This document shows, one piece after another, positions 12,794 through 13,075 of a DNA stretch of 64,000 bases (its first letter is position 1; the number at the start of each line of letters is the position of its first letter). A program made the position numbers and the translations under genes. Under the pieces are notes generated by a model. The model ran no database searches. It was not told where the DNA came from and saw only the letters and a program-made list of their open reading frames with translations. Origin of the DNA: Thermodesulfobacteriota bacterium (lineage in GTDB: Bacteria > Desulfobacterota > Desulfarculia > JACQYL01); contig CAXXLZ010000002.1 of NCBI GenBank assembly GCA_963675595.2, positions 3,648,001-3,712,000 on the forward strand, written 5' to 3'.

Positions 12794-13075
12794 TTACTTG
12801 CTCTCCGCGGGCATCTGCTGTTGCTCTTCACCCTCGGCGGGTTGAGCCTCTTTGGACTCGGTTTCCGACGGTTGCTGCTGATCCTGCGGGGTGCGGACCG
12901 CACCCTTCTTGGCGCCGCCTCACCCGGATTTCCCGGCTTCTTTCTTCACAGGCTCGGTACTCCCGGTACCGGGCTTTCCACCTCACCCACTACCTGCGAA
13001 AGCCAATCCCGAACCTGACACCAGAGTTGCGATGCACAACCCCGCCAGGGTCTTTTTCAGTTCCTTTTTGTCCAT
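12794..13075 (-). CDS. sbtA: SbtA selenobiotic precursor with two selenocysteines (93 aa; absent from ORF track)
   Basis: Manual translation: MDKKELKKTLAGLCIATLVSGSGLAFAGSG-U-GGKPGTGSTEPVKKEAGKSG-U-GGAKKGAVRTPQDQQQPSETESKEAQPAEGEEQQQMPAESK*. GGGGAG RBS; TGA at 12985-12983 and 12922-12920. Confidence 0.85.
12889..12905 (-). promoter_or_regulatory. Putative bacterial SECIS for Sec52
   Basis: GGGUGCG-GUC-CGCACCC hairpin starting 14 nt after the second UGA, with a G-containing apical loop. Confidence 0.7.
12955..12971 (-). promoter_or_regulatory. Putative bacterial SECIS for Sec31
   Basis: CGGUAC-CGGGA-GUACCG hairpin starting 11 nt after the first UGA. Confidence 0.7.

Follow-up and report, generated by a model that had tools for sequence, protein, structure and literature searches.

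Peptides of the SbtA/SbtM system (TIGR04081/TIGR04082; 'selenobiotic' or 'selenobacteriocin') are the closest described relatives of the locus analysed here. The SbtM enzyme of Geobacter was studied in vitro (Lewis et al. 2021, as described in PMC9204691 and PMC11002830) and, in the accounts given in these two articles, oxidises Gly-Sec to a selenooxazole with the loss of 4 Da per site. The perspective by Bandarian (2022; PMC9204691) contains the remark that newer annotations lengthen the peptide, with 'at least two SeCys residues', and a table row in a 2026 review of the prokaryotic selenoproteome reads 'Selenobacteriocin, TIGR04081, SGUG, 2 Sec' (PMC13188914). A two-Sec SbtA with the SGUG motif is already in print, and the gene described here (designated sbtA1) adds a member to a described system; its standing as a novelty was overstated in the first-pass annotation, which had been made from the DNA sequence alone. 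What sbtA1 provides is one more clean case of a single small gene with several predicted Sec codons, each with a minimal SECIS element of its own.

The locus resembles the described system in that its leader and maturase score above the cut-offs of the respective HMMs, its predicted Sec residues lie in a Gly-Sec-Gly motif with a putative SECIS element right after each UGA, its host falls in the Desulfobacterota-like group in which members of the family occur, and the combination of two Sec with SGUG is that of the review's table row (PMC13188914). It differs in the 41-residue tail of sbtA1, which is less usual as many relatives end a few residues past their last Sec, and in the presence of a paralog without Sec or Cys, sbtA2, between sbtA1 and the maturase gene sbtM.

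Bufferins offer a more distant comparison. As presented in PMC11626156, their BufA precursors are modified by MNIO/DUF692 enzymes with DUF2063 partners, carry a signal peptide of the Sec pathway and thiooxazoles, and bind copper in the periplasm. Shared with that account are a precursor made by the ribosome whose N-terminus is a signal peptide of the Sec type (predicted by rule in sbtA1), the conversion of Cys (here Sec) to a 5-thio(seleno)oxazole, which for sbtA1 is supposed by analogy, and a cluster without a dedicated exporter or protease. The differences, so far as the same account goes, lie in the enzyme, which is an O2-dependent multinuclear iron enzyme in bufferins and an unrelated, oxygen-independent radical SAM/SPASM protein in the case of SbtM; in the precursor, which is a small folded domain there, whereas the core of sbtA1 is a Gly-rich and probably disordered repeat; and in the use of sulphur rather than selenium, copper binding having been shown for bufferins and being conjectural for SbtA. 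No MNIO (DUF692) domain was found on the enzyme and no Pfam match (DUF2282, BUF_6/12Cys) on the sbtA1 peptide; sbtA1 is not a member of the bufferin family, and the likeness is one of function and chemistry by analogy.

For bacterial SECIS elements in general, Zhang and Gladyshev are said to have put forward the bSECIS model in 2005. Like the canonical element of the fdhF type, the hairpins of sbtA1 are stem-loops located 11-14 nt after a UGA within the coding region, with a small apical loop and G at its first two positions. Unlike it, sbtA1 has a short, minimal hairpin (6-7 bp) for each Sec, repeated within one small gene, and has no Rfam match.

The sbtA1 gene and its genomic setting

The features of the locus are listed in Table 1, in which the window denotes the whole stretch of DNA that was analysed (64,000 nucleotides). 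The first-pass annotation named no strand for its coordinates; sbtA1 lies on the minus strand and, when TGA is translated as U, yields a peptide of 93 amino acids (MDKKELKKTLAGLCIATLVSGSGLAFAGSGUGGKPGTGSTEPVKKEAGKSGUGGAKKGAVRTPQDQQQPSETESKEAQPAEGEEQQQMPAESK), as the first-pass annotation had proposed, together with the ribosome-binding site and the identical S-G-U-G-G context at both UGAs; a plus-strand reading of 12794-13075 gave a nonsense translation and was discarded. Under translation table 11 the frame closes at the first TGA and is recorded as a 52-aa ORF (12983..13141). The codons of the repeated motif are AGT GGG TGA GGT GGA at UGA1 and TCC GGG TGA GGC GGC at UGA2; because the codons flanking the two UGAs differ, the repeat is conserved at the amino-acid level. 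The upstream promoter match is weak, as two sites of equal kind were found in 3.6 kb compared to 1.1 expected.

Table 1. Features of the sbtA1 locus and Sec-related genes of the host genome (positions are those of the window, except for selD)
Feature	Position	Strand	Basis and remarks
Sigma-70-like promoter match, TTCTCA-17-TACAAT with TG	13144..13172	-	9/12 matches; ~70 nt upstream of the sbtA1 ATG
Shine-Dalgarno-like GGGGAG	13081..13086	-	direct reading; 5 nt before the sbtA1 ATG
sbtA1, 93 codons, two in-frame UGA (predicted Sec), TAA at 12796..12794	12794..13075	-	translation, TIGR04081, alignment with nine relatives
sbtA1 leader, residues 1-27; signal-peptide-like (positively charged n-region MDKKELKK, then a hydrophobic core and A-F-A preceding G28)	12995..13075	-	leader HMM and direct reading
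UGA1, predicted Sec31, S-G-U-G-G	12983..12985	-	U at the aligned position in 7/9 close relatives
Putative SECIS hairpin 1, CGGUAC / loop CGGGA / GUACCG	12955..12971	-	11-nt spacer from UGA1
UGA2, predicted Sec52, S-G-U-G-G	12920..12922	-	U at the aligned position in 7/9 close relatives
Putative SECIS hairpin 2, GGGUGC / loop GGUCC / GCACCC (or 7 bp, loop GUC)	12889..12905	-	14-nt spacer from UGA2
sbtA2, 81-aa paralog, SbtA-type leader, Gln/Glu/Ala/Pro-rich tail repeating QE(Q/E)QQPAETAA	12208..12453	-	TIGR04081
Terminator-like hairpin with U5, after sbtA2 and before sbtM	12149..12176	-	fold; absent from the pattern scan list
sbtM, radical SAM/SPASM thio(seleno)oxazole maturase; start uncertain (TTG 11859 or ATG 11829)	10225..11859	-	TIGR04082
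selA			621 bits; cut-off 268
selB			404 bits; cut-off 242
selD	C2:3335545-3336462 (L010)		386 bits; cut-off 125; the matched region contains one in-frame TGA
tRNA-Sec			77 bits; anticodon TCA

Residues 1-26 of sbtA1 matched the SbtA precursor model TIGR04081 over profile positions 1-26 of 27 (53.3 bits, cut-off 30.5), and the sbtM ORF (544 codons from the TTG), which is on the same strand about 350 nt downstream of sbtA2, matched TIGR04082 with 731.5 bits (cut-off 350) and contained Radical_SAM, SPASM and Fer4_12 as its only Pfam domains. The pairing of an SbtA leader with a radical SAM/SPASM enzyme, recognised in the first-pass annotation, was in this way borne out by both family models. In a profile search of the genome one SbtM and two SbtA leaders were found, all of them at this locus. 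The genes selA, selB and selD and the tRNA-Sec, a search for which had been recommended at the outset, are all present in the host genome, each above its family cut-off. The selD product is itself probably the selenoprotein form of selenophosphate synthetase, judging by its in-frame TGA.

Conservation downstream of the first UGA had been named beforehand as a test of the two-Sec reading. Residues 31-64 of sbtA1 shared between 9 and 18 of 34 identities with each of nine aligned relatives, to which the segment P-x-KKEAGKSGU between the two U residues is common. A full-peptide search of a public protein collection revealed no full-length relative of 51-163 aa, a blank which is expected if gene callers stop at UGA; sbtA1 is invisible to standard gene callers, and the lack of any full-length relative in the collection means that selenium-rich peptides of the SbtA family are under-counted.

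The tail that follows U52 (41 residues) is acidic, Gln-rich and of low complexity, and the chance that a 41-codon stretch would be open at the local G+C content was estimated at about 1 in 4. Contigs of four sequencing runs were compared with the stretch, and one of them, from another study and about 95% alike, was informative. It showed 40 listed differences and 14 more beyond the listing; among those listed, 26 fell in the 340-nt spacer downstream of sbtA1, compared to at least two inside sbtA1, a substitution at 12813 and a 3-nt deletion at 12819 that keeps the frame. The small number of listed strain differences within the gene relative to the spacer lends weak support to translation past UGA2. 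No RNA sequencing run was found to contain the stretch.

Hairpins downstream of the UGA codons in sbtA1 and its relatives

SbtM was patchily distributed among related genomes (5 of 41, the window's own included), and 542 SbtM relatives were confirmed when each species was scanned through a single genome. A set of 85 SbtM loci was assembled from the window, four related genomes and 80 public MAG contigs kept from that scan, mostly of Desulfobacterota type with some from Nitrospirota, and six-frame translations (TGA=U) of all 85 were searched with a profile built from seven leaders at a threshold of at least 15 bits. This gave 82 SbtA-type peptides, 79 of them distinct. The number of U residues in the motif [GSTAP][GSA]-U-[GSTAN] was 0 in 10 peptides, 1 in 5, 2 in 23, 3 in 27, 4 in 12 and 5 in 2, so that 64 of the 79 carried two to five; these figures are motif counts, in which a small number of TGAs at the peptide ends may be genuine stops. 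Several predicted Sec residues per peptide are, on these sequences, the rule in the family.

Interchange of Cys and Sec, which the first-pass annotation had suggested looking for, was also observed. Seven of the ten peptides without U had Cys in the same motif, all-Cys copies were found at loci L072, L090, L055 and L058, and one locus (L068) held a Sec/Cys pair of paralogs with near-identical leaders at about 1770-2100 and 2500-2900 on the plus strand. At L088 (2544-2610, plus strand), and also at L058, L065 and L071, two UGAs were located only 15-21 nt apart, for example in S-G-U-G-G-G-G-S-G-U-S-G. In such close pairs no hairpin separates the first UGA from the next, and one SECIS element may serve both.

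In sbtA1 a 6-bp stem follows each UGA at exactly the spacing noted in the first-pass annotation. When the 56-nt segments with hairpins 1 and 2 were folded, z values of -0.44 and -0.14 relative to shuffled sequences were obtained, which is at chance level; as the single-sequence folds match those of shuffles, the significance of the two hairpins comes from comparison with relatives only. An Rfam search over 12000-13400 returned five matches with E-values from 0.68 to 6.4, far under their gathering scores and with no SECIS family among them.

For the comparison, the UGA and the 46 nt following it were collected from the other loci, the window being left out, and 150 of the 184 distinct elements were used as the covariation set. 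A 6-bp stem with a 5-nt loop was paired in 94.3% of 893 cells, 202 of which were altered on both sides, across the 150 elements. The covariation score was 0.584 compared to 0.230 in shuffles, none of which reached it (0 of 500), and as a control the pairing partner was slid by 1-3 columns, whereupon at most 51% of cells were paired. A perfect 6-bp hairpin was found after 159 of 190 Sec sites, in contrast to 4 of 42 Cys sites. The commonest spacers between UGA and hairpin were 14 nt (77 sites) and 11 nt (24 sites), which are the two values of sbtA1, and most lay within 11-15 nt.

A covariance model (R1) was built from the UGA elements of the relatives, again excluding the window, with a short calibration that makes its E-values rough. 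Searched over both strands of the 64-kb window with filters off, R1 gave 25 matches at E-values up to 10, and the two UGA elements of sbtA1 ranked first (UGA2 element, 12922..12877; 37.1 bits, E 4.3e-6) and second (UGA1 element, 12985..12943; 26.2 bits, E 9e-4). The third match (50669..50716, 18.3 bits) falls within a 498-aa transporter-like ORF, in a different frame, and was set aside as chance. In a search of the whole genome, where 150 of 1534 candidates were scored, the UGA2 element was the top match (E 4.6e-4) and the UGA1 element was absent among the matches listed; the second match, C3:185044, was again attributed to chance, as its TGA falls within a 112-aa ORF but not in the frame of that ORF. 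At nine loci with Cys copies, R1 matches at E-values below 0.03 were confined to UGA sites, and at L068 the Sec copy was matched and the Cys copy was not. Taken with the covariation, the ranks within the window support the proposal, made in the first-pass annotation, of a SECIS element within coding sequence at each UGA of sbtA1, and both elements are typical of the family. R1 can be used to find further minimal SECIS elements of the SbtA type.

Probable decoding of the two UGA codons

On the evidence of sequence and comparison, 12794..13075 is very probably the sbtA precursor gene of a SbtA/SbtM thio(seleno)oxazole RiPP system, with two in-frame Sec UGAs and a SECIS element for each. SelB carrying Sec-tRNA(Sec) would most likely bind each hairpin, so that Sec rather than a stop is placed at residues 31 and 52. 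The conserved leader at the N-terminus is most likely what SbtM recognises, and by analogy with the in vitro work on the Geobacter enzyme SbtM would most likely oxidise each Gly-Sec unit to a selenooxazole. If the leader were cleaved at A-F-A|G, the mature product would be an exported peptide of 66 residues that bears two selenooxazoles and ends in an acidic tail rich in Gln.

Other readings were weighed against this one. The hairpins might not be SECIS elements at all: a repeated G-A-G-S/T coding motif might produce them incidentally, or they might act on transcription or mRNA stability. The hairpin sequence does encode a recurrent G-A-G-S-T/A motif, and no Rfam SECIS family was matched; this reading is nevertheless very improbable. 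An in-frame stop preceded the hairpin at 52 of the 190 Sec sites, and in 46 of those 52 the hairpin was still perfect, which means that it is no by-product of the coding repeat. The pair 42/52 alternates between U-A (68 sequences) and C-G (65) and so couples a synonymous third position of a Gly codon with a non-synonymous change five codon positions on. Also against it are the scarcity of hairpins after Cys codons of the same peptide motif and the narrow UGA spacing. Hardly any weight, either, can be given to the reading in which UGA1 is a plain stop and the locus makes a 30-aa peptide consisting of the leader only, or is a dead relic whose downstream likeness is that of a decaying former gene. 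It has in its favour the table 11 reading and the lack of a full-length relative (51-163 aa) in the public protein collection, a blank that is, however, expected from gene callers stopping at UGA. A leader alone would offer no residue to modify, protein-level conservation extends across UGA1 (KKEAGKSGU), covarying hairpins occur after UGA and not after Cys codons, and the Sec machinery is complete and the adjoining sbtM intact.

It is also improbable, if less so, that UGA1 encodes Sec while UGA2 is a true stop, which would give a 51-aa precursor ending in ...KSG and leave the 41-codon tail untranslated. Many relatives do end 1-6 residues past their last Sec, with the last hairpin in the 3' UTR (the 52 of 190 sites above), and the tail of sbtA1 is of low complexity. 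Sec decoding in bacteria competes with termination, so that some ribosomes would probably terminate at UGA2 whichever reading holds. As a general account of the gene, however, a stop at UGA2 is at odds with the UGA2 element being the best R1 match both in the window and genome-wide (among the 150 of 1534 candidates scored), with the repetition of S-G-U-G-G in different codons, with the alignment of both U residues to U in seven of nine close relatives, with the resemblance of the tail to the translated tail of sbtA2, and with the 3-nt deletion in the tail of the near-identical strain, which keeps the frame.

Leader peptides, possible export and the paralog sbtA2

Signal peptidase sites tend to have small residues at positions -3 and -1, and by this rule A-F-A|G in sbtA1 was read as a cleavage site. 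It is plausible, by rule, that the leader of the precursor is a Sec-pathway signal peptide which permits export. Among the 79 distinct SbtA-type peptides, 26 carried a lipobox-like motif of the form L-x-[GAS]-C, as a rule L-[ST]-G-C, around residue 29 (at L022, L027, L029, L030, L032, L040, L052, L056, L062, L063, L071, L072, L085, L090, L091, L093, L094 and L096, plus others), and the remainder had mostly small residues at -3 and -1 of the same place. The motif suggests that some members of the family undergo lipoprotein-type processing.

No conserved exporter or protease gene was found next to SbtM in the 85 loci, nor, apart from SbtA and SbtM, did clustering of the neighbouring genes yield a family present at more than 15 loci, the top clusters looking like shadow ORFs. 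With leaders built like signal peptides or lipoboxes and no dedicated exporter gene, the idea that a selenooxazole peptide is exported can be tested directly. The best guess for the function of the SbtA product is the binding of soft metals, comparable to the role of the thiooxazole bufferins and in line with the metal binding suggested in the first-pass annotation; as an analogy it is a conjecture, and a rather doubtful one. In a wider form, the SbtA leaders would double as secretion signals (type I in sbtA1, a lipobox in about one third of the family) and would deliver exported or lipid-anchored peptides with 2-5 selenooxazoles, which would bind soft metals (Cu, Hg, Cd, Ag) in the envelope of anaerobes as an oxygen-independent, selenium-based counterpart of the bufferins, with sbtA2 acting as an acidic exported companion or as a competitor for the leader site of SbtM. 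This scheme is tentative and, taken as a whole, unlikely.

The sbtA2 peptide, which has neither Sec nor Cys after its leader, scored 30.0 bits with TIGR04081 (cut-off 30.5) and 31.1 bits in the genome search. Homology between the acidic tail of sbtA1 and this neighbouring peptide, as claimed in the first-pass annotation, held in part: the tails aligned with 12 of 20 identities (QDQQQPSETES--KEAQPAE vs QEQQQPAETAAAQEEQQPAE; pairwise E 0.001), a modest match in low-complexity sequence, and the 39% identity of the whole peptides comes mostly from the leaders. sbtA2 resembles sbtA1 minus its two Sec modules, and no other complete SbtA-type peptide without Sec or Cys in its core was found among the 79 distinct peptides. 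The terminator-like hairpin between sbtA2 and sbtM may be an attenuation point which holds the enzyme mRNA below the precursor mRNA. The spacer between the two peptide genes (12454-12793, 340 nt), in which no Rfam match above noise was obtained, was the most variable part relative to the strain that is about 95% alike, among the differences listed.
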